Shown: in pieces, positions 17,657-51,220 of the stretch
Layout of the letters: each line of letters opens with the position of its first letter
Position numbering within the stretch: position 1 is the stretch's first letter
NCBI GenBank assembly: GCA_019873725.1
Contig: JAIOAS010000002.1
Span: forward strand, 1,012 to 65,011
Reading direction: 5' to 3'
Origin: Chloroflexota bacterium
GTDB lineage: Bacteria; Chloroflexota; Anaerolineae; B4-G1; SLSP01
DNA: 64,000 bases
The notes under the pieces: model-generated
Told to the model about the DNA's origin: nothing
Database searches by the model: none
What the model saw: only the letters and a program-made list of their open reading frames with translations
Position numbers and translations under genes: made by a program

Positions 17657-17665
17657 AGGAGAACA

Positions 17666-20010: not shown

Positions 20011-20030
20011 TCTCACAAGGAGGAACGTTT

Positions 20031-29862: not shown

Positions 29863-32800
29863 TCAGCGATTCGCAGGGGGTTGGACGGCGGTGATTTCTT
29901 TCAGCAATTGGGCGGCCTGCTGCGCCAGTTGCACAAAACGCCGTTTGAGTTGTTCCGGCGACTCGCCCTGGATATTCACGAAGAATGGGTCGGTGGGATG
30001 CGGCTTTCTGCCGGCGAGGCGACCTCCCAGCACTTTGAGCAATGGCGCCCAGGGATAGCCATGCCGCTTCAGGCCGGAAATTGCTGTGGCGTCGAACGCC
30101 AGCGGGTAGCCGGTTTGCTCCAACAGACTGGGCTGCTGCCCCAATGCCAGTTCGACCAGCGCGGCATCCAGCAGCAGACGCCCGGCGCGCGCCAGCAGCG
30201 CCTCGCGCTGGATGTGCTGTAGCCGTTCCTGTCCGCGCTGCACGCGCGCCCATTCAGCTTCAGCGGCGGATTGCACCGCGGTTTGTGCCGCGGCGATCTG
30301 CGCTGGCGTCCAGGTGATGTCGCTCTCGGATTTCAGCGCCTTGCGCAGCTCCGCCAAACGTCCTACGGGCTGCAAGTTCCCCGTCTTATCCTGTGTGAAG
30401 TATCCCACCCGCGGCAACGGTTCAGCAATTGCAATGCGCAGGATCGTAGAAGGTACAGCCTTTGATGTTACATCGCCTGCGAGGTCGGGCAAACTCTGAA
30501 GCAATGCGTCCAGCAAGGGATTGCCAAACGTCAGCAGTCGCACGGTGTTGGGATGAGTGTCGAACACCTGACGGTCGAAGGTAACGGCAGTTTGTGCGCC
30601 TTCCAGACTTAGCCAGTAAGCTCCCGCTATCGTTTCGTGAGGCTGGAAGTGCGTTTTTAGCGTAGGCGCTTCAAGGATGGCGGAGGCCATCTCCGGCAAA
30701 TTGAAGGCAACCTGGTTGCCCGCTGCCCCTGTCGCTTCCACTTCGGGATGCGCGGCCCACTCATCGAGGTTTAGCTGCGCCGTTTGCCGATCCAGGGCCG
30801 CGTCAAGATCGGCCAATTCCTGTTGGAGCACTCGCTGCCGCTCCGCGTCGCCGGTCAACGCCACACGCTGGATGGCGCGCCCCACCTGCGCCAGGATGGG
30901 TTGCAGCGGCCCCACAACGTCCTGGAACCAATCGATCCGGTTGTTGAGCGCCTGGTACACTTTGGCTTCGACGGTCTCTTTGTAGAAATAGTTATAAATC
31001 CATACCCGCTCGTAACGCTGCCCAATGCGGTCCACGCGCCCGATGCGTTGCTCGACCCGCATGGGATTCCACGGCATATCGTAATTGATCAACACGCCGC
31101 ACGTTTGCAGGTTCAAGCCTTCGCTGGCCGCCTCGGTCGCCAACAGGATTTTGATCCGTTCGCCCTCGCGGAAGGCGTTTTTCAACTCTTCTTTGGTGAT
31201 GGGCATCCAGGCGTTGCCGTCCCACCATTCGCCGCCGCGCCCGCTATAGCAGGCGACCTGGCTGCCGTATTGCTGCCGCAGTTGCTCACGTAGAAAGTCC
31301 AACGTGTCGGTATATTGCGTAAACACCAGCGCCGTCTCGCGTTGGCGAAATGCGGTCCCCAGATCGTGTTGCAATTGCGCGACTTTGGAATCATGGCCAC
31401 TCAGCGCCTGCAACGCGTGCAGGAAATCTTCAACGTAGGCGATTTCCTCCTGGTACTCTGCCGCGTAGTCTGGATCACGCGCCACGGCGAGGTCTTCGTC
31501 TATATCGAGCGCCAGTACGTCCTGTTCCAGATCATCGTCGTCCCAGAGCAGATCAGCCTGCCCGCGCAGGAAAGCCAGCCGGCGATTCAGGCTGCATTGG
31601 ACAGCGTGAAAGCTGCTGGTGAGCCGCCGGCGGTAGACGGTCATCACAAACCCCAGCCCTTTGCGCTTGGCCTCGTACTTGCGGTAGAAGTTGCTGATGT
31701 ATTCTTCGATGCGCAGGTATAGCTCGCGTTCCTCTTCCCGCATATCAATCCAGATCAGACGAGGGTCGCGGTAAGGGACGTTCTCCCGCAACAATCCCCG
31801 GCGGACATAATCGCGCAGCAGTGGGCGCGTGTTGCGGAAAACCAGTCGGCGCAGCGGTGTCGTGCGTTGAAGCAACTCCGCAGCCAGCGTTTGTGCTGTG
31901 GGTGGCAGTTTCTTGAATCCGGCGGCAGCAGCCTGGGGGTCAGCTTCGAGGACCTGTTGGAGTTGCGCCCAATCGACTGCGCCCAAACGTTGTTGCGCCT
32001 TGTGCGACCATTCTGCGGAGACACCGTCCGCCGCGCCGTCCCCACCGGCCGCGCGTTCGGCCTGGAACATACGAAAGACGAAGTCCCAGTCCGGTTCTTG
32101 ACTGCGCAACTCGGTGTAGAAACGCAGGAAATTGCGCCCGTCAGCGCCCCATTCGCCGCTCAATCCAAGCAACGTGAGCAAATCCCACACTTCGATGGGA
32201 TCGACTTGCATCGGCGTGGCGGTCATCAAGAGTAGGGATTGGGTGCGCGCTTGCAAGCCGCGCAGCAATTCGAGCAATCGGTTGGGACGATAGGTGCGCT
32301 GATCGAGGAAATCTTTGCGGCGGGCGTGATGCGCTTCGTCGACGAGCACCAAATCCCAGGCGGCTGAGGTCAGTAATTCGGCCTGCCGATCCTGGCGCTT
32401 GAGGAGCTGGCTGGAGGCTAACGCCAGGTTGACGCTGTCCCAGGGATTCGGAGTGGATACGGGTTGGATTTGCTCCCAATAATCCACGAAATCCTTGCCG
32501 TTATACAGCGGGACGTTGAGGGCGAACTTCTCGTAGAGTTCTTCCTGCCATTGGCGCAGCACGGACTTGGGCGCGAGGATCACCGCGCGTTTGACCAGCC
32601 CGCGCAGCCAGAGTTCGCGCAGCACCAGCCCCGCTTCGATGGTTTTGCCCAGGCCGACTTCATCGCACAACAGATAGCGCGAGGGGTACGTCTCGACGAT
32701 CTGTCTGGCGACGGCAATCTGGTGCGGCCAGGGCGCTACCGGCGCCGTCGCTGTTCCCAAGCCGGCGCCATTGATCAGGTGTGGCGCATCCTGTAGGAAG

Positions 32801-33621
32801 CGGCTTACCCAACGTTCGCGTTCCACGGCTGAGGCCAGGAGCAGTTGGGGCTTGTGCTCCTCGGTGCGAGAGGGCTTTCCAGGTTCACATTCCAACGGAT
32901 CGCGGTTGGGTGCAGCGTGGGGCGTGTAGCGCAGCAGGCTTTGCCGCGCGGCTTCAGGCACAGGGAGCGAAATCCAATCCGGCTCGCGGTGTTCCCACAG
33001 ACGCTCGAAGCGCGCCACGGCCTCCGCCACCCATAGCCGCCCCTCATTCCACGAACAGAACACCATAAACTGTTCGTAGTTGTGTTCCCAGCCGGTTTCC
33101 GATTCGTTGATGCTGCCGCTAAAGGCGACCTGATGGCCCTCAGCGTCGGTGAAGATACCGACTTTCGGATGGAAGTAGTCGTGGGTGTCGGGCGCGGGGA
33201 GGGGCAAGCCGCCAGGACCTTTGGGGAGCACCACGCGGATGTCCAGGCGCTCGTGGGCTACCAACCAGGCCAACGCTTCCAACCGCGCGCGGAGCAGATG
33301 GTCGGTCAAGGTCTCTGGATCGGGCAAGCCCGGACCCAGGCTATTGGCGACCACATCAGGCAGGTTGTAGCCGGCTTCAATGGCCGCCACATCTTCCCGG
33401 CTGAGTTGCGCGCCGACGAGCAGGCGCATCCGTCCGCCGTTGGCGATGAGGTGCGCCACGCCTGCCGCCGCAATCGCCAGCGCGTGGCTGCTAAAGTAGC
33501 CCGTCATCCGGTCGTAACGCACGCTGGCGGTGAGGGCCGGGATGTAGAAGGTGTGCAGCCGGTCATCGCCGGGACCGTAGGAGAGGCGAAAAGAAAGGTC
33601 TGGCAGAAGATTAGCCATCAT
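29863..33621 (-). CDS. PLD-like (HxK) nuclease domain fused to SNF2/Rad54-family helicase
   Basis: PLD: YFHPKVGIFTDAEGHQVAFSGSINESETG. Helicase: LLCDEVGLGKTIEAGLVLREL, LVDEAHHARR, LLATEAASEGLNLQTCGVLINYDMPWNPMRVEQRIGRVDRIGQ. Start overlaps the upstream stop (ATGA). Confidence 0.8.
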   Translation of the reverse strand: MMANLLPDLSFRLSYGPGDDRLHTFYIPALTASVRYDRMTGYFSSHALAIAAAGVAHLIANGGRMRLLVGAQLSREDVAAIEAGYNLPDVVANSLGPGLPDPETLTDHLLRARLEALAWLVAHERLDIRVVLPKGPGGLPLPAPDTHDYFHPKVGIFTDAEGHQVAFSGSINESETGWEHNYEQFMVFCSWNEGRLWVAEAVARFERLWEHREPDWISLPVPEAARQSLLRYTPHAAPNRDPLECEPGKPSRTEEHKPQLLLASAVERERWVSRFLQDAPHLINGAGLGTATAPVAPWPHQIAVARQIVETYPSRYLLCDEVGLGKTIEAGLVLRELWLRGLVKRAVILAPKSVLRQWQEELYEKFALNVPLYNGKDFVDYWEQIQPVSTPNPWDSVNLALASSQLLKRQDRQAELLTSAAWDLVLVDEAHHARRKDFLDQRTYRPNRLLELLRGLQARTQSLLLMTATPMQVDPIEVWDLLTLLGLSGEWGADGRNFLRFYTELRSQEPDWDFVFRMFQAERAAGGDGAADGVSAEWSHKAQQRLGAVDWAQLQQVLEADPQAAAAGFKKLPPTAQTLAAELLQRTTPLRRLVFRNTRPLLRDYVRRGLLRENVPYRDPRLIWIDMREEERELYLRIEEYISNFYRKYEAKRKGLGFVMTVYRRRLTSSFHAVQCSLNRRLAFLRGQADLLWDDDDLEQDVLALDIDEDLAVARDPDYAAEYQEEIAYVEDFLHALQALSGHDSKVAQLQHDLGTAFRQRETALVFTQYTDTLDFLREQLRQQYGSQVACYSGRGGEWWDGNAWMPITKEELKNAFREGERIKILLATEAASEGLNLQTCGVLINYDMPWNPMRVEQRIGRVDRIGQRYERVWIYNYFYKETVEAKVYQALNNRIDWFQDVVGPLQPILAQVGRAIQRVALTGDAERQRVLQQELADLDAALDRQTAQLNLDEWAAHPEVEATGAAGNQVAFNLPEMASAILEAPTLKTHFQPHETIAGAYWLSLEGAQTAVTFDRQVFDTHPNTVRLLTFGNPLLDALLQSLPDLAGDVTSKAVPSTILRIAIAEPLPRVGYFTQDKTGNLQPVGRLAELRKALKSESDITWTPAQIAAAQTAVQSAAEAEWARVQRGQERLQHIQREALLARAGRLLLDAALVELALGQQPSLLEQTGYPLAFDATAISGLKRHGYPWAPLLKVLGGRLAGRKPHPTDPFFVNIQGESPEQLKRRFVQLAQQAAQLLKEITAVQPPANR

Positions 33622-34283
33622 TCTCGCTGAGGTTGTCTGTGTTCACAACCATTTTGGTCACACACTACCATTTCTAAGAAATATGCCAGGCTCCGATTCC
33701 TTTGCGCAGCTGTTGCTAACATTTGCATTTGTTCGGCGATCTCACCGGATTTCGATTTTTCGTACCGTACCCGTTTGGTATCCCGAGTGCCTTTTTCTTT
33801 GGCCACCTGACGAATAATATGGGTAATGGTTTCCTCCGCTTGAGACGGAGTATAGCCTTCTGTTTGCCCGCTTTGCTGGGGAGTATATCTGCTACCTCTA
33901 TTCCCAGCTTGAAAGCGTACAATCGCCTGCGTGTCGGTTAAGAGCCAACATTCAAGACAACTATGCGCCACAATTAACCCTACTATCATATCCTTTGGTG
34001 GGTCTTCGCAAAGTTCATCAAATGCTTGTGTAATCCGTCGCAGTAGGGCACGTTTGCTCGGATCATGAGGTTCTTGATCAACAACAAACATAACACAGTT
34101 ACACTGCTTATGCTGCGCGCTCGCTACCACCTTTTGCATCTTGGCAACGGTTTCTATTTCGTCTACTGAGTGAAACTCGACAAAAACGTGTGTGTTTATG
34201 CCATACTGCCGTCGCCAGTTTTCGGCCAGAATTTTGTAGGCAGCATTGCTCGAATCATCTACGGAGAGCAGTAAGCCCATCAA
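33618..34283 (-). CDS. DUF4276-like protein (putative Toprim/OLD-like partner of AAA_21 ATPase)
   Basis: 221-aa low-GC gene translationally coupled on both sides. Acidic/His-rich motifs (FVVDQEPHD, CLECWLL). Assignment to DUF4276 is from memory of the family consensus; low certainty. Confidence 0.4.
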   Translation of the reverse strand: MMGLLLSVDDSSNAAYKILAENWRRQYGINTHVFVEFHSVDEIETVAKMQKVVASAQHKQCNCVMFVVDQEPHDPSKRALLRRITQAFDELCEDPPKDMIVGLIVAHSCLECWLLTDTQAIVRFQAGNRGSRYTPQQSGQTEGYTPSQAEETITHIIRQVAKEKGTRDTKRVRYEKSKSGEIAEQMQMLATAAQRNRSLAYFLEMVVCDQNGCEHRQPQRE

Positions 34284-35998
34284 AACACCCCCTGATCCAA
34301 GATGTTTTTACGGGTCAGGTCGCCTAACCGATATTCATCCAGCCACGGCGCAAATTCTTCCGCCGTAACCGGCTCAAATGTGGTTTTTCCTTCTTCATCC
34401 CGTCGCGCAATGAACACTTGGAGATAGGATGCCTCTGCACGTAAATCAAAGCAATCCATAAAGTCGGGGCTGTGGGTCGTAATGACGATTTGTGGTCGCC
34501 GAAACTCCTGATCGTCCGACTCTGGCTCAAGATCTACGACTGAGCGGATAGCGTCGGCCAACCATAACATCAAATGAGGATGCAAGCCCCGATCTGGCTC
34601 TTCCAGACAGATCAAGGCGGCGCCTGGATCGCCGATAAGAACAGCCAATGTAGAGAGGAGACAAAGCGTGCCATCAGACATGCTTTCCGCTGGAATGGCA
34701 CGGCCAGGAAAGAATGTCTCGTTAAAAGCGATTTCAGCCTTGCCGGTTCCGCCAGTTACAGATGCGCGAAGCGTGGTTGTCAGGGATTGCGCTGCGCGAA
34801 TGGCGCTATGCAGGCGCTCCTGAATTTCCTCGAAAAGATCGTTTGTTGTTTCATTGTGCTTCAGAGCGTACAAAAAAGCACTTAGATTGCCAGCATTGTT
34901 TTGTAACGCTGGTATTTCTTCTCCTATGCTTTCTGGAATCACACTCTCCCGTGCAGCGCGCGGATCAACTTGAAGGAAACGCCAGCCCTGTATAAACCGA
35001 TACAAGTTTTCCAAAGGTGGGAAAGTCGTTTCCCGTCCGTACGTTGCTAAAGCGGCTGTCCGCAAAGGCAATTTCCCTTGCACTGGAAGGTATCGGGGAT
35101 GCTGGTTTTCGGGATCAGAATTGGGGTGCTCGGCGTAACGTTCCACTTTTCCGGCTTGCCGGTCAATGAAGGCGATTTCAGGTCCGATGGAATGCAACCT
35201 GAGCATCAAGCGCTCCCTATCGATAATCAGTCTGTCCCTTGCCTGCTTGATGGCTAGTTCGTAGCGCGGCGCAAAGCGTCCCTGCTGACCGGGAACTGCC
35301 ATTGTCAGATCAAATGTGAATTGCGGTTCGATTTCATCTGAAGTTCCATACCAAAACAGATGGCGGGCCATTTCCTGGTGCCCTTTTCCGATACCCTCAC
35401 TTGCCAGATCATGAACAAACCTTAAGGCTTTGAACAGATTTGATTTCCCGCTGGCATTTGGCCCGATGATGATATTGAGTTGTTTTAGTTCTATGCTAGA
35501 GTCAAAAATGCTTCTGAATCCGGTGATATGAATTTCTCGTAACAGGGGTGAGAAAACACGATGTTGTTGTTCCACAAAGGCCAAGGCTTCATCGGCTGTG
35601 ACGAGTTCGTTCCGTCCATTTTGTCTCACCCAATACGCTTCAAGCTCTTTCTGGCGATAGGGTTTGGCGTTATCATTTCCATACACACGCAACACGACAA
35701 CTGCGCCCCTTGCAGTTTCCACCGTTTCAATTTTGGGTGTTAAGGGCGGAGCGCAATGCTGTAAGCAGAGGTTTTCCAGTTGCGCTTGCAGGCGTTCAGG
35801 ATCCGGAACCCCGACAATTTCGGCAGCTCCGGCCTCGGCAGTTCCGGTCACGCCAAAAATGATCCATCCCTCAAAAACGCCGTTGGCGAACGCAATAACG
35901 GCAGGGAGCACCGCGGATACAGAGGTAAAGTCAGTTTTGAATGCGGTCCATCTGTTTTCACCCGCACTTATCCGCTCCCGTAAAACCTCCTCAATCAC
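34280..35998 (-). CDS. AlbA_2/Schlafen-like DNA-binding domain fused to AAA_21 (ABC/OLD-type) ATPase
   Basis: N-terminus LPAVIAFANGVFEGWIIFGVTGTAE (AlbA_2-like). Walker A NIIIGPNASGKSNLFKALRF. Walker B/D-loop ALICLEEPDRGLHPHLMLWLADAI. Confidence 0.6.
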   Translation of the reverse strand: MIEEVLRERISAGENRWTAFKTDFTSVSAVLPAVIAFANGVFEGWIIFGVTGTAEAGAAEIVGVPDPERLQAQLENLCLQHCAPPLTPKIETVETARGAVVVLRVYGNDNAKPYRQKELEAYWVRQNGRNELVTADEALAFVEQQHRVFSPLLREIHITGFRSIFDSSIELKQLNIIIGPNASGKSNLFKALRFVHDLASEGIGKGHQEMARHLFWYGTSDEIEPQFTFDLTMAVPGQQGRFAPRYELAIKQARDRLIIDRERLMLRLHSIGPEIAFIDRQAGKVERYAEHPNSDPENQHPRYLPVQGKLPLRTAALATYGRETTFPPLENLYRFIQGWRFLQVDPRAARESVIPESIGEEIPALQNNAGNLSAFLYALKHNETTNDLFEEIQERLHSAIRAAQSLTTTLRASVTGGTGKAEIAFNETFFPGRAIPAESMSDGTLCLLSTLAVLIGDPGAALICLEEPDRGLHPHLMLWLADAIRSVVDLEPESDDQEFRRPQIVITTHSPDFMDCFDLRAEASYLQVFIARRDEEGKTTFEPVTAEEFAPWLDEYRLGDLTRKNILDQGVF

Positions 35999-36012
35999 AT
36001 CTGGCCTCCTTC

Positions 36013-38856
36013 CTAAAATCCGTATTTCATCCGGCGCAATTCAAAGGCGAAAGCGCCGCCTTCCAGAATAGATTTGACCTGTTCGCACACCTCAGGGGTA
36101 TCCACAAAGCCGCTAGATAAAACGCGCGCATGTAAGTCTTTGTCCTCTTGTACGACATCCAAGGCAATGATCAGTTCAGCATCGCCGGCAACAGGAATGT
36201 TGGGATTGTGGGTTGTAAAGAGCATTTGACGTTTACCTCGTTCCGCGCGCAGGGTCTCGACAATCTCCTGATAAATAAAACGATTGTCCAAATCATCTTC
36301 GGGCTGATCAATAATCAACGGCTCATTCGACTCAAGCAGCAAAATGGATAGAATAGCCGTACAGCCTTGCCCAACGGATACGCCTTCCCCCAAACGCCGG
36401 CCCAAAGCGCGCCAGATTCCGGGAGTGCGGTCCCCTTCATCTAAGGCGATGTTCATCTCGATTGTGACGCGATCCGGCGGTTGCATTTCATCAAGTTCCA
36501 GGCGCGTTTTAAGGTCCAGGCGTTCACGTAACTTTTCGAGCCTGTCGCCGTCCAGGTTACAATACTGTCTGAGTTGGGTCAAAGCATCAGGGATGAACAA
36601 ACTGGCCTGGGGCTGCGGCAACCATTCGGCGTAAAGCGATTCTCCTGTATTTTCTCCTTCAGCAGCCTCGATCAATGCTAACAAGGGTAGTAAATGAGGG
36701 GATTGAGTTTGCACCAGAGCGTCATAATCGGTAGCGCGCAACCGCGTACCCCGCAAGTAACGCTCCCATACTTCACGTAGCCAGTCTGCATCACGGCCCT
36801 GTTCGACGGTGATCCGAATGCGCTGTAAACGGTTGGTGATACTTGCGGCCTTTTCCTGCCTTAACTCATATTGCTGTTTACTGTTCTCTACCAGTCGCCG
36901 CAGATATGCGCGACGTTGCGCAAATAGCTGCTGTAATTCGCGTCTGGATTTTTCAACTTCGCGTTCTAAACGTTCCAATTCTGCACGTTCGCGTTCAAGG
37001 CGTAATACACCATCCGGCGATAAATCCGGCAACGCGCTTAACGCCTCACGATAGCGCGTCTCAAACATGTCGCGCGCCTGCACCCAAGTCCCCTGCGCCT
37101 GCTCAATCTCGGTCTGCGCTTCCTTTAACCTTTCTTCAACTATTTGCCACGTAGCCTCCACATCTCGCGCCAGGCGTTGTATACGTTCGCCTAACCACTT
37201 CAACTGCGCTGCATTGGGTAGAGTCTGGAGAGTATCATCAGGCAATAAGGTTTCTGGCGGCGCTATACGACGTCGTGTTTCTTCGAGCACTTTGCCGGAT
37301 TGTCTCAGATGCAGCAAGGCGTCATCCCACCCCTGCATTTCACGGTCATAGAGACGTTTGGTTGCCGACAATTCCTGGATGCCCAATTGATGGTATTGGC
37401 GCAATTGTTCTTCAATCCGCGCTTTGCTTTTGAGACGCTCCTTCGTCTGTTTGATGCGTTCATACTCAGCGATAATCGCTTCACGATTACGGCGCAATTC
37501 GATCAACTGTGTATTATGCTCGCGCTTCAGTTGTTCTAAACTTTCCCCGACAAACCGATCCAACAACTCCAATTGTGAACTGACGTTCTCAGAAGTATAC
37601 AGGATTTCTTTCTGCCCGTAGAGTTGTGGCCGGAACACATCTACCGGACGCAAGTCTGTAGATAACCAATGCCCATTCGATTCACACCGTTCCACCTGCG
37701 TAGGGTTGCGTCCTTGTCGTACCAGACGATAGCGCGTGCGATCCTTGACGATCTCCAATTCGGCGCGCCCTGTTTCCGGCAAAAACACATCGGCAAATCC
37801 TCGAAGGTCTACTTCTTTGGTCCGTAAGGGTTCGATCTCCCATAAATAACGCAATAATTCCACCAGGGCTGATTTTCCGGTCCCACGTGCGCCAATGAGA
37901 CAATTCAGACGCGGGTTGAATTGCAGATTGATTTCACGCAGGAACCCGGTCGTATTGAATCCGTTTTGCTTAACCAAACGCAAGGCTGTTAGATAGCATC
38001 CTGGCTCTGGCGGCGGATTATCTCTTAGTCGTAGACGAGCCTGGGGGTCATGTAATGCATTTTTAAGCGCGGAGAAGTTGGGACATTCACATTTCACATG
38101 GGTAAACCATGTACCAATTTCTTCAAGCTGGTGAGCATCGGAGGCATTTAGACATGCAATTGGCCGTTCGCGTCGAAAATCAGCGTCGTTATGTTGATTG
38201 GTGACGACAAGCCGTTGCCATTCACTCAGTTCCGCAATGGTACTTTTGTGGATTTGTACGCCCAGGAGTTTGGGGTGACAAAAATCGCGTTTACGCTTAA
38301 GACCCTTGTTCGATTTTGAATCCAACAAACTGTCTTCAGAACTAAAAACATGCGCGGCAATCGCTATGCCATCGCGGTTTGCAATTGCCTGTACAACGTC
38401 GGTGAAACTGCGCGGCGTTGGAATACAAAATCCCGCATCTGTAAAGCGCTCCTTGAGGTCAAGATCATCATCCAAAAAGCGTTCGAGAATCTCAACCTTT
38501 GTATCTTCTGAGAAAATTGCCAAAATATGGATAGCGCCAAGGCCCCCTGAGGCGCTGACTTCTATTCCTGGCAACACAACGAAAGTTTCTCCATAGAGTT
38601 CCTTTGCCGCCTGTCTTAAAGGATCAATCCAGCTCGCGTCGTTGTGATTGGTAATCGCAATTGCGTCCAGTCCGGCTATTTCATGCGCTTGGCGGACATA
38701 ACGACGGGCAAAGGCAAGTTTCTCCTCCGGAGTCGCTGGTATCGCCTCGCCGTTCGGCATGGTGAAATGTTGCCCCACGCCGGGCGCATGTAGATGTATG
38801 TCAAACTTTTTGTAAGTTGCTCCCAAGCTCATCAACCGCTCCTTTGATCTAAACAC
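36013..38856 (-). CDS. PHP-domain phosphoesterase fused to SMC/Rad50-like coiled-coil ATPase
   Basis: PHP: KKFDIHLHAPG...AIAITNHND...GIEVSA. Walker A LIGARGTGKSALVELL, ~400 aa of coiled-coil-like sequence. C-terminal LIIDQPEDDLDNRFIYQEIVETL...LFTTHNPNIP (Walker B/D-loop/H-loop). Confidence 0.7.
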   Translation of the reverse strand: MFRSKERLMSLGATYKKFDIHLHAPGVGQHFTMPNGEAIPATPEEKLAFARRYVRQAHEIAGLDAIAITNHNDASWIDPLRQAAKELYGETFVVLPGIEVSASGGLGAIHILAIFSEDTKVEILERFLDDDLDLKERFTDAGFCIPTPRSFTDVVQAIANRDGIAIAAHVFSSEDSLLDSKSNKGLKRKRDFCHPKLLGVQIHKSTIAELSEWQRLVVTNQHNDADFRRERPIACLNASDAHQLEEIGTWFTHVKCECPNFSALKNALHDPQARLRLRDNPPPEPGCYLTALRLVKQNGFNTTGFLREINLQFNPRLNCLIGARGTGKSALVELLRYLWEIEPLRTKEVDLRGFADVFLPETGRAELEIVKDRTRYRLVRQGRNPTQVERCESNGHWLSTDLRPVDVFRPQLYGQKEILYTSENVSSQLELLDRFVGESLEQLKREHNTQLIELRRNREAIIAEYERIKQTKERLKSKARIEEQLRQYHQLGIQELSATKRLYDREMQGWDDALLHLRQSGKVLEETRRRIAPPETLLPDDTLQTLPNAAQLKWLGERIQRLARDVEATWQIVEERLKEAQTEIEQAQGTWVQARDMFETRYREALSALPDLSPDGVLRLERERAELERLEREVEKSRRELQQLFAQRRAYLRRLVENSKQQYELRQEKAASITNRLQRIRITVEQGRDADWLREVWERYLRGTRLRATDYDALVQTQSPHLLPLLALIEAAEGENTGESLYAEWLPQPQASLFIPDALTQLRQYCNLDGDRLEKLRERLDLKTRLELDEMQPPDRVTIEMNIALDEGDRTPGIWRALGRRLGEGVSVGQGCTAILSILLLESNEPLIIDQPEDDLDNRFIYQEIVETLRAERGKRQMLFTTHNPNIPVAGDAELIIALDVVQEDKDLHARVLSSGFVDTPEVCEQVKSILEGGAFAFELRRMKYGF

Positions 38857-38920
38857 TGAACGCTCTCATCCCTATTCTACAACAACTTCCTCAGAAGCCG
38901 CACACAAGTCGCCCTCTGTC

Positions 38921-38990
38921 CATTCCAGTATCGAGCTTCCAGCATCCAGCCTCAAGCTTCCAGCTTCCAGCATCCAGCCTCAAGCCCCAA
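38921..38990. repeat. GCTGGAA/GCTGGAT tandem repeats forming the methyltransferase C-terminal tail
   Basis: cagtatcgagcttccagcatccagcctcaagcttccagcttccagcatccagcctcaagc. Confidence 0.5.
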
Positions 38991-42008: not shown

Positions 42009-42069
42009 AAAAGAATCTCCCTACAGTGTAGTATCATGCATAATGTATGATGTTATGCTAAAAACGTTA

Positions 42070-42852: not shown

Positions 42853-42857
42853 AACAC

Positions 42858-43178
42858 TTAACCAATCAGATGGTGCCTAATCTTGTTTCGTAGTCCTTTA
42901 TGATGCTCTAGTACGCCAGTAAACTCTGGCTGGGTCTGAGCATCCTGATTGACCAATATCCGGTTGGCTTGGCGCCATGCTTTCCAGGCTTCAGAATAGT
43001 CACCTTTGTTTAGAGCATTATCGACCTCTATATGTAACTTAATGACCTGCCCTCTAGCATTATCAGATACTTCGGTGCCATCACCACTTAAACCAGGAAG
43101 AGACCTGATATTGGAGAAAGTCACCAGTCTGCCAAATCCCAGAACGCTGCCTATCCAAACAATGATATCTCTGATCAT
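42858..43178 (-). CDS. hypothetical small protein
   Basis: 106-aa ORF in the AT-rich insert, coupled spacing to neighbours. No recognisable domain. Confidence 0.3.
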   Translation of the reverse strand: MIRDIIVWIGSVLGFGRLVTFSNIRSLPGLSGDGTEVSDNARGQVIKLHIEVDNALNKGDYSEAWKAWRQANRILVNQDAQTQPEFTGVLEHHKGLRNKIRHHLIG

Positions 43179-43196
43179 TTTCTTGCCCTTCTTCCA

Positions 43197-44210: not shown

Positions 44211-44221
44211 TTGCTCCTTAC

Positions 44222-45241
44222 TTATTCCTCCGCCAGCAGTACCCGTAACGCCTTCTGCGCACGAATGGCATCCGGCCCGGCGGTGCATTTGCTGAACCAG
44301 TAATAGGCTTCCTCACCGCTCATCGCCTGGATGCCCTGCCCAATCGCCTCGATGCGATCCTGGCGCGTCAGCGGCTTCACCGCCAGCAAGATCAGCGCCA
44401 GGCGCAGCCCCGTCGGTTCGTCAAGGTAGAAAGGCTTGTCGCTGCCCACAGCGCGGGCCAGGTCGGTGGCCTTGTAGCCATTGGCGCGCAGCGCCGCGAG
44501 CAGGTGCTCGGTCGTCGCGTGGAGCGTCTGCGCATCCACGTCCACGCTCCACAACGCCTGTGCGGCGGGCTTTGTGGCCTGCTCGTAAGCGAATTTGGCA
44601 GTCTGCCGCCCATTGAGCCACTGGTATAACGCCGCGCGGTAGCCCCCGGCAGGATCAGGCAACGTGTAGAGCACAAAAGGCCGGGCCGGGTCGGGTTGGA
44701 AGCTGGGTGCTGGTTGCTGGATACTGGTTGCTGGTTGCTGGATGCTGGATGCTGGATGCTCGATGCTGGATGCTGGATGCTCGATGCTGGATGCTGGTTG
44801 CTGAGGGCTGACCGCTGACTGCTGATAGCTAATAGCTGACGGCTGACGGCTGATAGCTGATGGCTGATCGCTGACATCGAAGAGACGGCGGCGGCCGGCG
44901 GTATGCAGCGGTGCGGGCAGGCGTTGCGGAGCGGCGAAGAACCAGCCAAAGCACGGCGCGCCGGGAAAGGGTTGGTCCAGGCGGTGCTGGGCTTGCAAGG
45001 CTGCGTAAGATTCGGCGTCCAGCGCGCGGATCTCGACCAGTTCCACCGTCCCGAGGAGTGCGCCGTAGGCCAGCGCATCGGGATCGAAGCCCAGGGCGCG
45101 GCAGCGTGCGTCCCGGCGCGTGGCGGCGGCGTGCACTGCCAACGGGCCGCGATAGGCCGTCTGCCAGGTGCGGATGTCCACCGTCTTTTCACCGCGGACG
45201 ATCTGCTCCGCGCGCGGCTGGTGGAAGCTCAAAGCTTTCAC
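44222..45241 (-). CDS. ASCH-domain protein fused via repeat-encoded linker to DUF3780-like C-terminal domain
   Basis: ASCH: MKALSFHQPRAEQIVRGEKTVDIRTWQTAYRGPLAVHAA...GTVELVEI. Linker SDQPSAISRQPSAISYQQSAVSPQQPASSIEHPASSIEHPASSIQQPATSIQQP encoded by heptamer repeats. The C-terminal ~170 aa sit in the position expected for DUF3780 in DUF1156/DUF499 cassettes. Confidence 0.5.
   Translation of the reverse strand: MKALSFHQPRAEQIVRGEKTVDIRTWQTAYRGPLAVHAAATRRDARCRALGFDPDALAYGALLGTVELVEIRALDAESYAALQAQHRLDQPFPGAPCFGWFFAAPQRLPAPLHTAGRRRLFDVSDQPSAISRQPSAISYQQSAVSPQQPASSIEHPASSIEHPASSIQQPATSIQQPAPSFQPDPARPFVLYTLPDPAGGYRAALYQWLNGRQTAKFAYEQATKPAAQALWSVDVDAQTLHATTEHLLAALRANGYKATDLARAVGSDKPFYLDEPTGLRLALILLAVKPLTRQDRIEAIGQGIQAMSGEEAYYWFSKCTAGPDAIRAQKALRVLLAEE
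44698..44876. repeat. heptamer repeats (CTGGATG/CTCGATG + GCTGACG types) inside the ASCH-DUF3780 coding sequence
   Basis: ggatgctggatgctggatgctcgatgctggatgctggatgctcgatgctggatgctggttgctgagggctgaccgctgactgctgatagctaatagctgacggctgacggctgatagctgatggctgatcgctgac. Confidence 0.65.
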
Positions 45242-48200
45242 TTTTCCTCCGCGTCAAGTTGGATCACGTCCAGCCCCACCGTCGTGAGCACTTCGTGCAG
45301 GGTGCGGAAGGCGTCGCTATCCACGGCCAGCCCTTCGGGGAAACGCAAAATCAACGTCAACGTCATCGTGAATTTGTCGGCGAGCTTCGCCAGGTCATCC
45401 GTCGCGGCCTTGAGCTGGCGATAGCGTTCCCAGGCCAGGTCGACGGTGAAGGTGGCCGATTCATCCTCCCCGAACTCGGCTGCTGAACGCAGTTGTACCC
45501 GCGCCGCAGGCGCATTCAGTTGTGGGATGACGACGCCCACCGTGCGCAACGCCCGCGCGCCGGCCTGTCCCTGCCCTTGCAGCGCGATGCGGAGCGTCTG
45601 GATATGGGTGATCTGCCGGTCATGGCAGATATCGGACAATTGCTGGAACGCCTGCTGCGGCACCCCCGCACCGCGCAGCGGTTTTTCTGTGGGCGGTGGC
45701 GTGATGATGATGTCTTCCCCACACGTACATTGCGATTGTGGCTTTCCGCAGACCGGGCACGGTTCTTCCGGCGGCGGTGTGATGATCACCTTACCTTTGA
45801 TCGGCAGGCCCAGTCGCGCGGCCTCGGCGGGCAGGTACAGATACGCCTCATCGGCGATCTGCACCGCGGGCGGTGGGGAGTCGTGATCGTAGCCCATCTC
45901 GGCGCGCGCGTCGTAGTAAATCCACGTCTGTGTCTTGATCCCGTTGAGGATCGTCTTCTTCAGTTGGTTCAGATCGAACAACATCGGGAGGCTCAGCCGG
46001 CGGGCAAACGCCTTGCGCAAGTCCTCGGTCGTCATTTGCGTGAGATTGGCGTCCCAAGCCCGCGATTTCACGTAAGCGGCGGACAGCATCTGCTCGTTAC
46101 CGGTGAGCGCCTTCTGCTGCTGTCGCAGCACGCGCAGCACCACGTCGGATTGGTCTTTTTGCACATCGCCCTGATCCTGTGCGGGCAGCATCTCGTGCAT
46201 CAGATACCCGTCGCGCTGCAATGCATCCGCCTGCGGAAAGTAGCAATGCCGGTAGACTTTCGTGATGCCCACCCGCACATCCAACTCCGCGCTTTCACCG
46301 AGCTTCTTGATCTTTTTGCGCTGCTCCTCGGTGAACTCCTGCATCCGCTGCGCGTCGCCCGTGATCCGGTTGATGCCCAGGTAGTAGCGAACGGTATCCA
46401 CCACATCATCAACCCGCTCGCCATCGGCCACCAGGAACAGCAGATTGTTGGGGAAGCGGCGATACCCCTCCATCGCGCCGGCGCGCGCCGCGAGCTTGCG
46501 CGCCAGTTCGGGCGGTTGCGGCGCGGTCGCCGTGGCGCTGGCCGCGTCGTAATGCAACACGACCAGCTTGGGCGCATCGGCGTCATCGTCCACGTCGTCG
46601 GCTTCCTGGGGAAAATAGATAACCTTGAACGCGCCGCTCTTCCAGACCTTGCGGATGCGCGCATCCAGTTCCGCTTTGGCCGTCGTCAGCCCCACCAGTT
46701 GCATTTCGTCGTTGATGATTTTGTTGATCGAAGGCTCCGGCTTGAAGCGATACCGCAGCCCGTCCCACTCGAAGAACCAGCCCTTGTCGTAGAGCCGTTC
46801 CGCCGCCTTGTGGACCAACGCCGGCTCGTCGCCTGGCGCCAGCGCGCCCAGCAGCAATTCGGGCGGCGCGATGCCGGAGATCGCGCCCTGTACCAGGCTA
46901 TGCAGGAACACCGTGGTCGCCACGCGGCGGGCGTAGCGCGGCTTGCCCGTCATCACCCAGGGACCGTCGATCTGGTAGGCGTGGCCCGGCGCAGCGCCTT
47001 TGGGACTGACGATGTCGGCTTCGATCACTTGCCGGAAGGCCGGACGCTCCAGGCGGCTGGTGAGGTCTTCGGCGATCTCCGTGTTGCGCAAGTCCACGTG
47101 ATACGGCGCGATGAACCAGGCATCGGCCGGGCGCTCTTCCCAGACCCGGCGCACCACCAACGCCAGCAGGCGCAGTGCGCCGCGCGTCTTTTGGAAATTG
47201 GGGATCGTCGCCACCCGCAGAGTCAGCGCGTTGAGGAGTTCTGGGTGAAATGGGTAAGCCGCCGCCAGCGCCTGCGCGTATTCCGCCGTAAGCGCCTGCG
47301 TGGGCAAGGCCACGTTCTGCTCGTGCCAGCGGCGGTAAGCCTCCGTGTACGCCTGCGCCGTCTCGGCGGCGGCCTGGGCGTCAATCGTCGCAAACAACCG
47401 GTGGCGCACAATCGCGGCGATCTCCGTCTCGCCGGTAGGGGTGATGACCCGCTCTTGCCGCGCCGAAACCTTGTACGCTTCGGCCAGGTGCGCGCGCAGT
47501 TGGTCGGTCTCCTTCGCAAAGGCGTCTTCCGCGCCAGCCAGGGTGAGCACCACGACGACGTTGGCGCGGCTGGCAGCGAACTCCAGCAGCGACATCAAAA
47601 AAGCCACCGTCTGCTCGGCCAAATCGGATTTTCCGGTAGCGGTGGGGACGGATTGCGCGGCGCGCATGTGCCGGGCCACTTCGTCCAGCATAATTAGCGT
47701 GGGCCGGTCACCCAGCAGTTCGGCAAAGAGGCCAGTGCCGGGCGCGGAGCGGTGCTGATCGCTCTCCTGCGCCAGCGCGTACCCGGCCGGGCCGCCGAGT
47801 TGGTAGGCCAGTTCGCCCCATAGCGTAAACGTGCGGAGATTGGCGTCTGCATGATAAAGCCCCGTCGTGGGATCCAGGTCCGAACCTACCACACCGGCGA
47901 TGCGCACCTGATCAGGCGCGGGTAACAAAGCCGGGTCCACCACCTGCGGCATCAGCGCCGCGGGCAGGTCTTGGCCGCGCGCCGCGTGATACAGCGCAAT
48001 GAGATTGTGCGTCTTGCCGCCGCCGAAAGCGGTTTCCAGGCGCAGAATCGGGCTGCTGGCAGGGCGTGCGCCGGTCAGGCGCCCGAGGGCTTCAGTCAAC
48101 AACAGCCGCAGGCCGGCGGTAGGATATGTGTTCTCGAAAAAGGTCGTGGGGTTTTGGTACACCGGCACAGCTTTGCCATCCAGCACATCCTTGAGCCGGG

Positions 48201-48276
48201 CAGCAAAAATGTCTTCAGTCAATTGCCCCTGCAAGACTTCGGGCCGAGGCGTACAGGTATCAAAAACGAGTTGCAT
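45238..48276 (-). CDS. DUF499-family ATPase
   Basis: MQLVFDTCTPRPEVLQGQL...ILRLETAFGGGKTHNLIALYHAARG matches the P-loop and N-terminal region of DUF499. RBS aggagg 6 nt upstream of the ATG at 48276. The longer ORF-track start at 48576 is unlikely. Confidence 0.6.
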   Translation of the reverse strand: MQLVFDTCTPRPEVLQGQLTEDIFAARLKDVLDGKAVPVYQNPTTFFENTYPTAGLRLLLTEALGRLTGARPASSPILRLETAFGGGKTHNLIALYHAARGQDLPAALMPQVVDPALLPAPDQVRIAGVVGSDLDPTTGLYHADANLRTFTLWGELAYQLGGPAGYALAQESDQHRSAPGTGLFAELLGDRPTLIMLDEVARHMRAAQSVPTATGKSDLAEQTVAFLMSLLEFAASRANVVVVLTLAGAEDAFAKETDQLRAHLAEAYKVSARQERVITPTGETEIAAIVRHRLFATIDAQAAAETAQAYTEAYRRWHEQNVALPTQALTAEYAQALAAAYPFHPELLNALTLRVATIPNFQKTRGALRLLALVVRRVWEERPADAWFIAPYHVDLRNTEIAEDLTSRLERPAFRQVIEADIVSPKGAAPGHAYQIDGPWVMTGKPRYARRVATTVFLHSLVQGAISGIAPPELLLGALAPGDEPALVHKAAERLYDKGWFFEWDGLRYRFKPEPSINKIINDEMQLVGLTTAKAELDARIRKVWKSGAFKVIYFPQEADDVDDDADAPKLVVLHYDAASATATAPQPPELARKLAARAGAMEGYRRFPNNLLFLVADGERVDDVVDTVRYYLGINRITGDAQRMQEFTEEQRKKIKKLGESAELDVRVGITKVYRHCYFPQADALQRDGYLMHEMLPAQDQGDVQKDQSDVVLRVLRQQQKALTGNEQMLSAAYVKSRAWDANLTQMTTEDLRKAFARRLSLPMLFDLNQLKKTILNGIKTQTWIYYDARAEMGYDHDSPPPAVQIADEAYLYLPAEAARLGLPIKGKVIITPPPEEPCPVCGKPQSQCTCGEDIIITPPPTEKPLRGAGVPQQAFQQLSDICHDRQITHIQTLRIALQGQGQAGARALRTVGVVIPQLNAPAARVQLRSAAEFGEDESATFTVDLAWERYRQLKAATDDLAKLADKFTMTLTLILRFPEGLAVDSDAFRTLHEVLTTVGLDVIQLDAEEK

Positions 48277-48454
48277 ACCACCTCCTGTGGCCTGGAAATG
48301 GGTCGTGATCCGTCTACAGTTTATCATCTTTTGGGGAAGGATGCAAATGTACTTGCTATAGGGCACAATCTTCCTTGCTTTTTCGCAGCCTGACGTTATA
48401 GTTAGGGTATGCACATTGTCGTATTCCGGTTCTTGAGATGACTTCAAGCTATCT

Positions 48455-51220
48455 ATGATGACAGCAGTACAATCCCCAACACCTACTACGCACCGGCGAT
48501 TCTTCTCAGACCGCCAAGCCGCGCTGCGGTGCATCGCCTCCGCGTTGGAATCTGCCGAACACATACGGATTGCCACGGCGTACTTTGAGGGTTCAGGATT
48601 TCAGGCGCTCCAAGAGACGCTCAGAGGCAAAAAGATTCGTCTGCTTGTGGGACGGCAGGAAGGTGGAGAAGATAGCTTTCGCGAAGTATTGAAAGAATTC
48701 GTCCGAGAGCTTTCCTATGGTCCGCAAGAGCATCGCAGCCGCGCTATGCAGCAAATGTTGGAGGCGCTGGAACAAGGATGGATGACCGTAGCAGTGGGAG
48801 CAGCGTTATCCGAAGACTTGCCCTGGCTAGAGGCGCGCTATCTCTACCATCATGCCAAACTCTACATCGCCGATGAACGATTCGCAGTAGTTACATCAGC
48901 TAATTTTTCATACCATGGCTTGTGTATTAGCCGTGAAGCTGGGATCACGGTCACTGATTCCGACGATGTGCGCTACTTTGTCCATTGCTTCGACAAGTAT
49001 TTTGACCAGGCGCGTTCCATTACTGCAGAGCTAATCGAAGCCCTGCGGGCGTATCTGCGCGCGTATGATCCCTATGTAGTCTATGCTCGCGCTTTGCTGG
49101 AACTGTATGGCTTGCCACAGGACGAAGCGCCGCCACAATTGCCCCCTTTGGCCAAGTACCAGGAAGGCGTAGTATCCAGCGTTTTGCGGTCGCTCCTGGA
49201 ACACCATGGGGCGTTCCTTATTGCTTCGACCGGCTTGGGCAAGACAATCATCGCCGCACACGTCGCAGCCTACTTGCGGATGCAAGGTGAAATCGATAGC
49301 GTAGTGGTGATCGGACCGGCAGGACTCCGTGAGGTCTGGAGGCGCTCCATGCGGGCAGCGCGGGTACCCAGCGTAGAATTCTCATATCACACCCTCACCC
49401 GCACCGACGGCGACTCAAACTTGCCCATCCTGGAACACGAACTGCGCCAGGTCAATGAGCAGACACTTATTATCCTTGACGAATCCCATCGCCTGCGCAA
49501 TGAAAGCAGCAATGGCGGCGATCTGCGGTTGAGCAATGCGCGAATCCAAGAAGCCGTGCGGGAAAAAGGGGCCAAAGTGTTGCTCCTAACCGCCACCCCT
49601 TATGGCAAGGATTTTTCGGAAGTCGAAAGTCAATTGAAGCTCTTGCCTGCTCCGAGACACGCTATGCACACTGCATTAGGATTCACCACCAGCATTACGA
49701 CATGGCAAGCGCAAAAGTTGGCCGATTTGCCAGAACTACCGCCCTGTACAGTGCTAACCACACCGGATGTCGTGCGGCACTTTGGACATCAAGACGAACA
49801 GGGTGAACGCTATGTTGTATTCTCTGAAACCGATCGGCGCTATTTCCCGCGCCGTATCCGCCTGCAGACCGTACGTTACGACAACCCTTTCGATGAGTTC
49901 CTGGCTGAGCTTCTCGAAAGTAAATTGCTGTATAAAGAATTGGCATCCGGCAAACCATCTCCACAGGCTGCTCTGCCACTCGACCTACCCAATGGACATG
50001 GTGAAAGGCTACCCCTGCAAGAAGCACTCTTCTTACATCAGTTTTGTTCTTCGCCAGCAGAAGTCAAAGAGGTGTGTGACAAACTTGAGTTCGGCGGCTA
50101 CAACTACACCTTTGCCCGCCAAAAGGAACTGAGCGATTTCGTCCGGGAACGACGCAGACTCATCCGACAATCTGGGAACCCTCGCAAAGACCCAAAGCTA
50201 CGGGCCTTATTCGACATTATCAAGACGGCTAAAGACAGCAAATTAGTCATCTTTTGCGAGTATCATGCCACAGCACGTTATCTACGAGAAGGATTACTGA
50301 AGCTTATGCCGCGTTTGAAAGTCGAAACGACGCTGGATGTATCCGATTTGGATGGTCTTCTACGTCGTTTTGCTCCGCTGGCTAATGAAGTGCTGCCGGA
50401 AGAGCGCCAACCAGAACAAGAAATCCAGGTATTGATCGCCACACGCTCTATGGCTGAGGGCTTTAACCTGCAGGATGCGGCAATACTGGTCAATTACGAT
50501 CTGTCTTGGACAGTCTTACAACTGGCACAACGTATGGGGCGCATTCTACGTCCCTGGCATATTCCCCGCGACGTAACCATCTATAACTTTGTACCTTCTA
50601 CAATGGATCATGCGCGCATTGCACATGCTCGTAATTGGGAACGCCGCTTGCGAGAACGCAATCGCCAACATCGCTCGCTTGCCCAGATCCCCGTGATGGT
50701 TTATAAGGAAAGCCGCCAGAGCAATTTGGCGCAAGAGCTTGAGATGGAACGCCTGGGGCGCGAAATGTACCTGTCTGGAGAGACCTATGCTGACCTGGAT
50801 TTACACCAGGTAATGGAATTCATCCAATCGGTGGATGATCTCACGACCAGCACCTTCTACAATGATCTGGCAACCATTGCCAACCGTGATGAAATTCTCA
50901 ACTTGCCGGCTGGGATCCGGAGCGCCATGGTCAAGCCTGGTCGCAAGCGTCTGTTTCTCTTGCTGCGTAGCGCGCGTTCACGTTTGGATACAGTTCTGGC
51001 AGACAGTAGAGGGCGTCCATTGGATGAAAGTTGGCGACGCGATGACGTGATGCGGGCCATTCGATGTCTGCCTGAGACACCCAAAGCACCTGCTGCTACC
51101 TATCCTACACCTGATGATTTTGACACCTGGATCGAAGTTACACGCAATGAGTGGGCGACCCAGCACGGACTCGATGCAACAAAACTACAGATCGTCTGTG
51201 CTTTGGCATTACTGCCGTAG
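48455..51220 (+). CDS. PLD-like (HxK) domain fused to SF2 helicase (DEAD/SNF2-like)
   Basis: PLD: YLYHHAKLYIADERFAVVTSANFSYHG. Helicase: FLIASTGLGKTIIAAH, LIILDESHRLRN, VLLLTATPYG, VLIATRSMAEGFNLQDAAILVNYDLSWTVLQLAQRMGRILRPW. Confidence 0.75.
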   Translation: MMTAVQSPTPTTHRRFFSDRQAALRCIASALESAEHIRIATAYFEGSGFQALQETLRGKKIRLLVGRQEGGEDSFREVLKEFVRELSYGPQEHRSRAMQQMLEALEQGWMTVAVGAALSEDLPWLEARYLYHHAKLYIADERFAVVTSANFSYHGLCISREAGITVTDSDDVRYFVHCFDKYFDQARSITAELIEALRAYLRAYDPYVVYARALLELYGLPQDEAPPQLPPLAKYQEGVVSSVLRSLLEHHGAFLIASTGLGKTIIAAHVAAYLRMQGEIDSVVVIGPAGLREVWRRSMRAARVPSVEFSYHTLTRTDGDSNLPILEHELRQVNEQTLIILDESHRLRNESSNGGDLRLSNARIQEAVREKGAKVLLLTATPYGKDFSEVESQLKLLPAPRHAMHTALGFTTSITTWQAQKLADLPELPPCTVLTTPDVVRHFGHQDEQGERYVVFSETDRRYFPRRIRLQTVRYDNPFDEFLAELLESKLLYKELASGKPSPQAALPLDLPNGHGERLPLQEALFLHQFCSSPAEVKEVCDKLEFGGYNYTFARQKELSDFVRERRRLIRQSGNPRKDPKLRALFDIIKTAKDSKLVIFCEYHATARYLREGLLKLMPRLKVETTLDVSDLDGLLRRFAPLANEVLPEERQPEQEIQVLIATRSMAEGFNLQDAAILVNYDLSWTVLQLAQRMGRILRPWHIPRDVTIYNFVPSTMDHARIAHARNWERRLRERNRQHRSLAQIPVMVYKESRQSNLAQELEMERLGREMYLSGETYADLDLHQVMEFIQSVDDLTTSTFYNDLATIANRDEILNLPAGIRSAMVKPGRKRLFLLLRSARSRLDTVLADSRGRPLDESWRRDDVMRAIRCLPETPKAPAATYPTPDDFDTWIEVTRNEWATQHGLDATKLQIVCALALLP

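Follow-up and report, generated by a model that had tools for sequence, protein, structure and literature searches.

An Hma/MANTIS-type operon of a Chloroflexota bacterium as a probable insertion site for other defence genes

One set of defence genes appears in the literature under four names: Hma, Gao_RL, the DUF499-centred Type-2 BREX-related systems and MANTIS. The Type-2 BREX-related systems are defined by an HKD-helicase fusion and a small DUF3780 gene, which in a subset is fused to ASCH. The September 2026 preprint on MANTIS (MtsA-D) describes an ATPase that loads the methylase and a small protein that stimulates the hemimethylation of asymmetric 6-bp sites. Restriction, according to the same preprint, requires all four proteins, including a dimeric PLD-helicase as the putative nuclease, with a preference for inverted pairs of unmodified sites; the four-gene core was sufficient in Pseudomonas, and the authors consider that keeping spatially apart from the chromosome might serve as a safeguard. 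Hma operons also harbour further genes. In the 'guilt by embedding' study, embedded genes were present in 62.7% of 1,485 Hma systems, 96.7% of them co-oriented, and seven of nine tested Hma-embedded candidates (HEC) were active (Payne et al. 2024), while Septu, Ppl, PARIS and AAA_21 systems have been reported inside hma regions described as an insertion hotspot (Microb Biotechnol 2024). Here, we analyse a stretch of 64,000 nucleotides from a Chloroflexota bacterium (contig JAIOAS010000002.1 of assembly GCA_019873725.1, positions 1,012 to 65,011 of the forward strand), referred to below as the window. It contains a gene cluster that very probably represents one Hma/Gao_RL/Type-2 BREX-related system of the MANTIS type, the operon of which has taken up other defence genes by insertion.

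Ten tightly packed, co-directional genes occupy the minus strand between 29863 and 48276, joined by three 4-bp overlaps and by gaps of 5, 14, 14, 18, 61 and 95 bp, and a single gene diverges from them on the plus strand at 48455-51220. A first-pass annotation, made from the sequence without database searches, had described eleven co-directional genes; its coordinates and spacing are correct, and the count is ten, which is also the sum of its own list, the eleventh gene being the divergent one. The features of the region, listed below in order of transcription from hmaC with lengths in amino acids (aa) and the source of each assignment, are as follows.

45238-48276, minus strand: hmaC, mtsA-type DUF499 AAA+ ATPase, 1012 aa, core (PADLOC, Pfam, NCBIfam)
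44222-45241, minus strand: ASCH + DUF7680 protein, 339 aa, in the MtsB/DUF3780 position (Pfam)
43197-44207, minus strand: first gene of cargo 1, four-helix integral membrane protein, 336 aa (structure model, helix prediction)
42858-43178, minus strand: second gene of cargo 1, small protein, 106 aa (position kept in related loci)
42070-42852, minus strand: third gene of cargo 1, single-pass anchor with a partial TolB-like beta-propeller, 260 aa (AlphaFold2 (AF2) model, Foldseek)
38952-42008, minus strand: hmaB, mtsC-type DUF1156 N6-adenine DNA methyltransferase, 1018 aa, core (PADLOC, Pfam, motifs)
38923-38978, no strand: heptanucleotide tandem repeat across the methylase stop and the junction with cargo 2 (repeat scan)
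36013-38856, minus strand: cargo 2, TrlF-family PHP + ABC/SMC-like ATPase, 947 aa, a relative of Ppl (NCBIfam, PADLOC)
34280-35998, minus strand: gene A of cargo 3, Schlafen/AlbA_2 + ABC ATPase, HEC-01A-like, 572 aa (PADLOC, Pfam)
33618-34283, minus strand: gene B of cargo 3, weakly DUF4276/RloB/HEC-01B-like (TOPRIM-type) partner, 221 aa (weak Pfam and PADLOC matches)
29863-33621, minus strand: hmaA, mtsD-type HKD(PLD) nuclease + RapA-like SNF2 helicase, 1252 aa, core effector (PADLOC, motifs)
48277-48454, no strand: divergent intergenic region of 178 bp, from hmaC to the second PLD-helicase (gene coordinates)
48455-51220, plus strand: neighbouring stand-alone HKD(PLD) + SF2 helicase, 921 aa, outside Hma (Pfam, motifs)

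The hmaC start at 48276 is backed both by a profile alignment that begins at residue 4 and by an orthologue of 1011 aa, and the first gene of cargo 1 was assigned to the ATG at 44207, which has an AAGGAG site upstream and gives 336 aa instead of the 363 aa of the full open reading frame (ORF).

All three Hma components defined in PADLOC are present in this one co-directional run. The DUF499 ATPase matches HmaC at 2.4e-108 over 778 residues and Pfam DUF499 at 8.8e-40, its 246 bits to NCBIfam DUF499_antiphage falling under the equivalog cut-off, and retains its P-loop (FGGGKT) and Walker B (LIMLDE) motifs. The methylase matches HmaB (4e-77), Pfam DUF1156 (4e-16) and N6_N4_Mtase, with motif I (DPFAGGG) and motif IV (DPPY) intact. 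The PLD-SNF2 protein, for which the nearest solved relatives are RapA, matches HmaA (2.2e-67), PLD_Helicase (2e-73) and BrxH (9e-79) in PADLOC, NCBIfam phospholipD_antiphage with 399 bits, below the cut-off, and Pfam SNF2, Helicase_C and PLDc_2; its HPK(x5)D...GSIN, GLGKT and DEAH motifs are intact. The separate PADLOC models DUF499, DUF1156_MTase and PLD_Helicase also match the core genes. The four roles and their order (DUF499 ATPase, small reader/co-activator, DUF1156 methylase, HKD-helicase) are those of Hma, Gao_RL and MANTIS, the catalytic motifs are all present, and the helicase is RapA-like, as described for the BREX-related helicases. Judged by its predicted proteins, the core can be filed with confidence as an Hma system. 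The first-pass annotation had found that the combination matched no named system; the DUF499, DUF1156 and PLD-SNF2 genes are, in fact, PADLOC's HmaC, HmaB and HmaA, and embedding in hma operons is published.

The protein in the MtsB position is where the locus may depart from MANTIS. It combines an ASCH domain (1.4e-5) with Pfam DUF7680 (E ~4e-29 to 2.3e-28), instead of DUF3780, for which the protein gave no Pfam match even with listing to E = 10. Its gene comes after the DUF499 gene in every related locus, its ASCH domain matches ASC-1 structures in the PDB at 8e-10, and the linker between the domains is an in-frame heptanucleotide-repeat stretch of ~60 aa. By its architecture, the locus appears to be of MANTIS type, one defining feature apart. 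PDB sequence searches with the ASCH protein and the helicase retrieved no solved MANTIS structure. Among the domains that the first-pass annotation had assigned, DUF499, ASCH, the DUF1156 methyltransferase, the PHP-SMC ATPase, AlbA_2-AAA_21 and PLD-SNF2 all hold, DUF3780 gives way to Pfam DUF7680, and the DUF4276-like call is weaker (24.8 against 30.2 bits). Separately, the ASCH part of the reader protein (44222-45241) matches a phage family of unknown function, phrog_3193, at 5.5e-22.

The host, too, differs from those of the systems described, being a member of the Chloroflexota and, to judge by the nearest loci, probably of the Anaerolineae. Another difference from the published Hma and MANTIS operons is the presence of six foreign genes. 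The four core genes have a G+C content (GC) of 0.61-0.65 and a third-codon-position G+C content (GC3) of 0.73-0.79, the same as the rest of the window (hmaC, GC 0.64 and GC3 0.79; methylase, GC 0.64). Between them, in the same orientation, lie three low-GC cargo blocks. The membrane cassette at 42070-44207 has a GC of 0.44-0.45 and a GC3 of 0.42-0.44, and the genes in 33618-38856 have values of 0.47-0.51 and 0.43-0.50, respectively (GC of 0.50 for TrlF, 0.51 for the AlbA_2-ATPase and 0.47 for the 221-aa partner). Heptamer repeats typical of this genome are present in core genes, with no array in the low-GC cargo. Co-oriented cargo between hma genes is the published pattern, and an HEC-01-type pair and a Ppl-type gene are classes named there; the window differs in filling two slots at once, with three cargo blocks. 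There are four genes between hmaC and hmaB, counting the ASCH-DUF7680 gene, and three between hmaB and hmaA. The published screen allowed three at most, so the hmaC-hmaB spacing lies beyond its limit, which may explain why PADLOC has no model for the membrane cassette.

Direct evidence that cargo is exchanged comes from loci in which it differs. In a close relative, the orthologous locus (L091-L093, L095) has the same flanking genes on both sides, and in L091-L093 the second PLD-helicase is 96% identical to that of the window, HmaC 91%, HmaA 88% and the methylase 78%. Yet TrlF and HEC-01 are missing from its methylase|helicase slot, their place being taken by three low-GC ORFs (188, 151 and 49 aa). 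In L098 (HmaC 78% identical), by contrast, the methylase, TrlF, HEC-01A and HEC-01B genes follow one another as in the window. For the reader|methylase slot, a metagenome scan with an ASCH-DUF7680 profile yielded 80 loci, 46 of which contained the reader gene together with the methylase. The two genes were less than 150 bp apart in four of these 46 and enclosed the membrane cassette in three, the remainder containing other genes, with a slot GC below that of the core gene in all but one. Sampled occupants include an OLD/GajA-like gene, an HEC-01 pair and a SIR2/pAgo-associated-like gene, and in the closest cores without the cassette (L094, L096 and L103; HmaC 88-93% identical where present) a 596-aa gene takes its place. 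The core order itself is conserved in dozens of loci; the first-pass annotation would have been refuted by a gene order found nowhere else together with failing domain assignments. That annotation had left a choice between a hotspot of stacked systems and one large composite system; cargo exchange, composition and the slot survey together favour the former.

Some of the alternative occupants are candidates in their own right. The 188-aa protein encoded within L092:13844-15000 has a hydrophobic N-terminus and no PADLOC match. The 596-aa gene (L094:11208-12995; also in L096 and L103) likewise has no PADLOC match and is another embedded candidate. In an Anaerolineae metagenome-assembled genome (GCA_023382535.1), the membrane cassette of an Hma locus (L004:4722-21137) is surrounded by several additional cargos, namely an HSP70 with a GrpE-like partner and a pentapeptide-repeat protein, a TIR-KAP NTPase and genes with BrxC_BrxD domains.

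By analogy with the published homologues, the DUF499 AAA+ ATPase of the window would load the DUF1156 N6-adenine methylase onto short asymmetric sites, and the ASCH-DUF7680 protein would act as a reader or co-activator stimulating the methylation that marks self DNA. Unmethylated foreign DNA would be recognised by the same complex and cut by the dimeric HKD(PLD)-SNF2 translocase-nuclease. The TrlF and HEC-01-like blocks probably function autonomously, as back-up or abortive-infection modules transcribed together with the core. For the membrane cassette, the most likely role is that of one more embedded defence module, in which an extracytoplasmic TolB-like protein would serve as sensor and the small protein as adaptor, next to a four-helix membrane protein that has helical domains in the cytoplasm.

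The 947-aa protein of cargo 2 shares the architecture of the single-gene Ppl/TrlF systems, with an N-terminal PHP phosphoesterase and an ABC/SMC-like ATPase. It passes the cut-off of NCBIfam TrlF_fam_ATP (442 bits; cut-off 350) and falls far short of that of Ppl_antiphage (195 bits; cut-off 1000), and is therefore a member of the TrlF family that is related to Ppl but distinct from it. The PADLOC Ppl match (3.6e-44) covers only its first two thirds, and Pfam identifies PHP_C and AAA_23/AAA_21. TrlF homologues were found stand-alone on plasmids. A literature search for the TrlF protein found none, returning spectroscopy papers only, and we know of no test of its function.

HEC-01, a candidate system that also occurs outside Hma, provides the closest match for cargo 3 (Payne et al. 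2024). The 572-aa ATPase matches PADLOC HEC-01A at 7.2e-45 (residues 158-562) as well as AriA, AbiLi and PDC-M07A, and Pfam AAA_21 at 4e-27, with a Walker A motif GPNASGKS. A small partner gene follows after a 4-bp overlap, as in pairs of the HEC-01/PARIS/AbiL type. The window pair differs from these in the additional N-terminal Schlafen/AlbA_2 domain of the ATPase (AlbA_2, 4e-14, residues 14-132, outside the HEC-01A model) and in a partner that is marginally DUF4276/HEC-01B-like: the 221-aa protein scores 24.8 bits against Pfam DUF4276, under the cut-off of 30.2, and matches PADLOC HEC-01B at 4.5e-4 and RloB at E = 0.035. Its gene has a 4-bp overlap on each side, including the cargo/core junction with hmaA.

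The remaining block, the membrane cassette, is the only undescribed one of the three and a testable candidate for a new defence function. Its three proteins belong to no family in Pfam (to E = 10), PADLOC, NCBIfam or PHROGs, apart from weak matches of TolB/lasso-peptidase propellers. The first-pass description of three AT-rich membrane and propeller genes is borne out by their composition, by four hydrophobic helices in the first protein and one in the third, and by the TolB-like fold of the third. The model of the first protein (336 aa) is all-helical, with a pLDDT of 90.6, and the protein carries invariant EGY (within FEGYP) and LPT.LGN (within LPTRLGN) motifs. Related loci have a gene of 103-116 aa in the position of the second gene, and in the closest orthologous locus its product is 52% identical. 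In the third protein, a transmembrane helix at residues 32-50 accompanies a domain (AF2 pLDDT 77) for which the best Foldseek matches are TolB (E 3e-7) and for which a precomputed Pfam match gives Tricorn_N; Cys96 and Cys105 are nearly invariant, which hints at an extracytoplasmic location. Kiwa and Zorya are membrane defence modules, and the cassette is like them in placing integral membrane proteins and a putative extracytoplasmic sensing domain in a defence operon. The likeness is purely one of concept, as the cassette has no sequence or fold similarity to their PADLOC models.

Every close homologue of the first cassette protein that was recovered (36-100% identity) occupies the same slot of an Hma locus, between the ATPase/reader genes and the methylase, with the propeller gene behind it and, in most loci, the small gene in between; these homologues represent ~10 distinct loci, mostly in Anaerolineae-type assemblies. 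A scan of 185,579 species-representative genomes gave 131 distant relatives (24-35% identity) outside Hma, in Acidobacteriota, Gemmatimonadota, Actinomycetota and others, and a scan of 2.9 million viral contigs gave no relative of this protein. In a type-3 BREX locus (L013:84-10369; BrxF, BrxC with 1758 bits and PglXI with 1223 bits), a 31%-identical membrane protein lies between BrxC and PglXI, in a position equivalent to the Hma slot, and precedes a small gene and a propeller-like gene. The similarity of this propeller and small protein to their cassette counterparts is marginal in pairwise BLASTP (E = 0.05 and 0.02, respectively). Two other distant relatives, each with a similar trio of weak partner similarity, adjoin integrases, with no Hma or BREX gene nearby. 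Further distant homologues adjoin a Ser/Thr kinase and a PQQ-propeller-TPR-caspase protein (L042:4504-10855) or, in L055 and 12 other actinomycete loci, TPR-CHAT proteins of 1250-1470 aa. Pairings with kinase-caspase or TPR-CHAT proteins are typical of conflict or cell-death modules.

This distribution bears on two other ways of reading the cassette. It might be a lineage-specific accessory of BREX-type machines that tethers or couples the ATPase-methylase complex to the membrane, where the complex could meet incoming DNA, stay off the chromosome or receive an envelope signal. The confinement of the close homologues to a single Hma slot and the homologous position in type-3 BREX speak for such a role, as does the spatial separation from the chromosome considered by the MANTIS authors. 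In addition, the divergence of the membrane protein tracks that of HmaC more closely (Spearman rho 0.91 over 55 non-independent pairs, some from duplicate loci) than that of the methylase does (0.66), which suggests long co-inheritance of cassette and core. On the other hand, the majority of Hma loci of this subtype are without the cassette or have the slot filled by other genes, cassette-like trios occur beside integrases away from Hma and BREX, and distant membrane-protein homologues turn up in unrelated contexts, such as beside TPR-CHAT or caspase proteins. The GC3 of the cassette also remains far under that of the core: it is 5-46 points lower than in neighbouring core genes in every locus examined (the window, L092, L004, L006, L007, L008 and L001), and no drift towards host values was seen in these loci. 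We consider the accessory role unlikely. The stronger proposal suggested by the first five contexts, that the cassette is a constant component of this Hma subtype, was rejected once most loci of the subtype proved to hold other content in the slot. The AT-rich coding could be a product of selection for AT-rich codons or of repeated replacement out of a low-GC pool. A more speculative idea, which we hold to be improbable, is that the cassette is an undescribed anti-phage module partnering BREX-type ATPase-methylase machines, which would couple restriction to envelope events or keep the machinery membrane-bound, its AT-rich coding being selected to keep a toxic effector low.

Alternatively, the cassette could be a passenger with no part in defence, such as an envelope or housekeeping module inserted in a permissive site. 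It resembles no defence family, some of its distant homologues lie among housekeeping genes (L009), and TolB-like propellers are ordinary envelope proteins. Such a passenger would not be expected to show the repeated embedding in two kinds of defence operon, the integrase neighbours or the rapid evolution observed for the cassette, the three proteins of which are 74, 52 and 64% identical in the nearest orthologous locus against 88-91% for the core. Moreover, recognised defence genes are among the alternative occupants of this slot, and published tests of Hma-embedded candidates found most of them active, as noted above. We consider a role outside defence unlikely.

It is far less likely that all ten co-directional genes, perhaps together with the second PLD-helicase, form a single new multi-component machine. 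The tight spacing, with 4-bp overlaps even at the junction between the HEC-01B-like gene and hmaA, the return of the methylase-TrlF-HEC-01A-HEC-01B order in L098 and the co-divergence of cassette and core would all be expected of such a machine. Against it stand the different methylase|helicase slot genes of the closest relative, despite the same core and flanks, the 596-aa gene in place of the cassette in relatives with an HmaC 88-93% identical, the strong difference in composition between core and cargo, and the independent existence of the parts, as TrlF is found alone on plasmids, HEC-01 also outside Hma, and the four core genes are enough in Pseudomonas.

A variant of DISARM or of canonical BREX can be practically dismissed, as the first-pass annotation had also concluded, for although the helicase matches the DrmD and BrxH models and the methylase weakly matches PglX, no gene in 29.8-51.2 kb matches DrmB/DUF1998 (DrmA, weakly, and DrmD are matched only by SNF2 helicases), the cluster contains no PglZ or BrxL match to any of the canonical types (1-6), the ATPase matches only the HmaC and DUF499 models and not BrxC, and the best full-length matches in the cluster are those to the Hma models.

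Several points weigh against an Hma operon with inserted defence cargo. Methylation, restriction and cargo activity are predictions for this locus, and co-transcription of the cluster is assumed from gene spacing; a consensus scan of 29400-49000 for promoters and terminators gave no excess over shuffled controls. Strict membership of MANTIS is not established, given that the protein in the MtsB position has DUF7680 and not DUF3780 by Pfam. For the first cassette protein, no fold match was found, the cassette matches no defence model, and its co-divergence with the core fits a functional accessory of the Hma lineage as well as an autonomous guest. Finally, the 221-aa partner matches HEC-01B and DUF4276 only marginally, and HEC-01 gave no protection in its sole published test (Payne et al. 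2024).

The divergent 921-aa helicase at 48455-51220 is a separate neighbour in a defence island and not part of Hma. It contains Pfam PLDc_2, ResIII and Helicase_C, with intact HAK(x4)D, GLGKT and DESH motifs, and its weak PADLOC and NCBIfam matches run through the helicase core only. The family, with identities of 50-84% in Chloroflexota and cyanobacteria, adjoins MmeI-like and type I restriction-modification genes elsewhere, and adjoins Hma only in the window and in the closest relative, where the protein is 96% identical. It is absent upstream of HmaC in L094 and L103. Describing the cluster as bracketed by two PLD-helicases, as was done at first, is therefore misleading, one being the effector of the system itself and the other an unrelated neighbour. 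The divergent gene has a GC of 0.53 and a GC3 of 0.54. A few kb past it, the window encodes a Prim-Pol (54787-55713) and a DnaN beta-clamp (57962-59329), and in L176:1-7881 a homologue adjoins the genes for DnaB and DNA polymerase III alpha. This helicase may be linked with a replication module or a mobile element.

On the other side of the cluster, at 20958-29606, the window encodes a CHAT + FGE-sulfatase protein (816 aa), the gene for which lies ~6 kb from hmaA here and adjoins it directly in the relative. The intervening ~6 kb, apparently an insertion, also fall within 20958-29606 and contain the genes for a 505-aa Peptidase_C25-like protein and for a 'choice-of-anchor D' surface protein of 1490 aa. 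Farther upstream in the window, Tad/Flp-pilus-like genes (a CpaE/ParA-like ATPase, a T2SSE ATPase and T2SSF) and large DUF11/PPC surface proteins are encoded at 3882-10237, so that the Hma locus lies among ordinary envelope genes rather than in a large defence island. No tRNA genes were found within the window.

Heptanucleotide tandem repeats with units such as GCTGGAT, GCTGACG, CCAGCAT and CCGTCTA are dispersed over 2774-59535 of the window, mainly in intergenic sequence, with arrays at 3908, 5324-5458, 8338-8428, 17584-17657, 19890-20012, 38923-38978, 39769-39856, 44697-44875, 54733, 59507 and other positions. Two in-frame arrays, at 39769-39856 in the methylase and at 44697-44875 in the ASCH-DUF7680 linker, encode peptide repeats of the QPASSIE type. 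Short tandem heptamer repeats of this kind are known from cyanobacteria. The repeat at the methylase/TrlF junction was considered as a mark of the insertion mechanism, a proposal dropped because the same repeats occur throughout the window and are mostly intergenic.

The cluster thus adds one more case, from an under-sampled Chloroflexota-like lineage, of Hma/MANTIS operons as insertion sites for defence genes, and the near-identical cores and flanks with different cargo in two slots offer a clean natural comparison. Both the core and the embedding pattern are already published. What is new resides in the membrane cassette, which is conserved and absent from PADLOC v2, and in the unassigned alternative cargos, that is, the 596-aa gene and the trio of 188-, 151- and 49-aa genes. 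If the cassette does couple to the ATPase-methylase complex, it would bear on a question common to MANTIS and BREX, namely how incompletely methylated host DNA escapes restriction.

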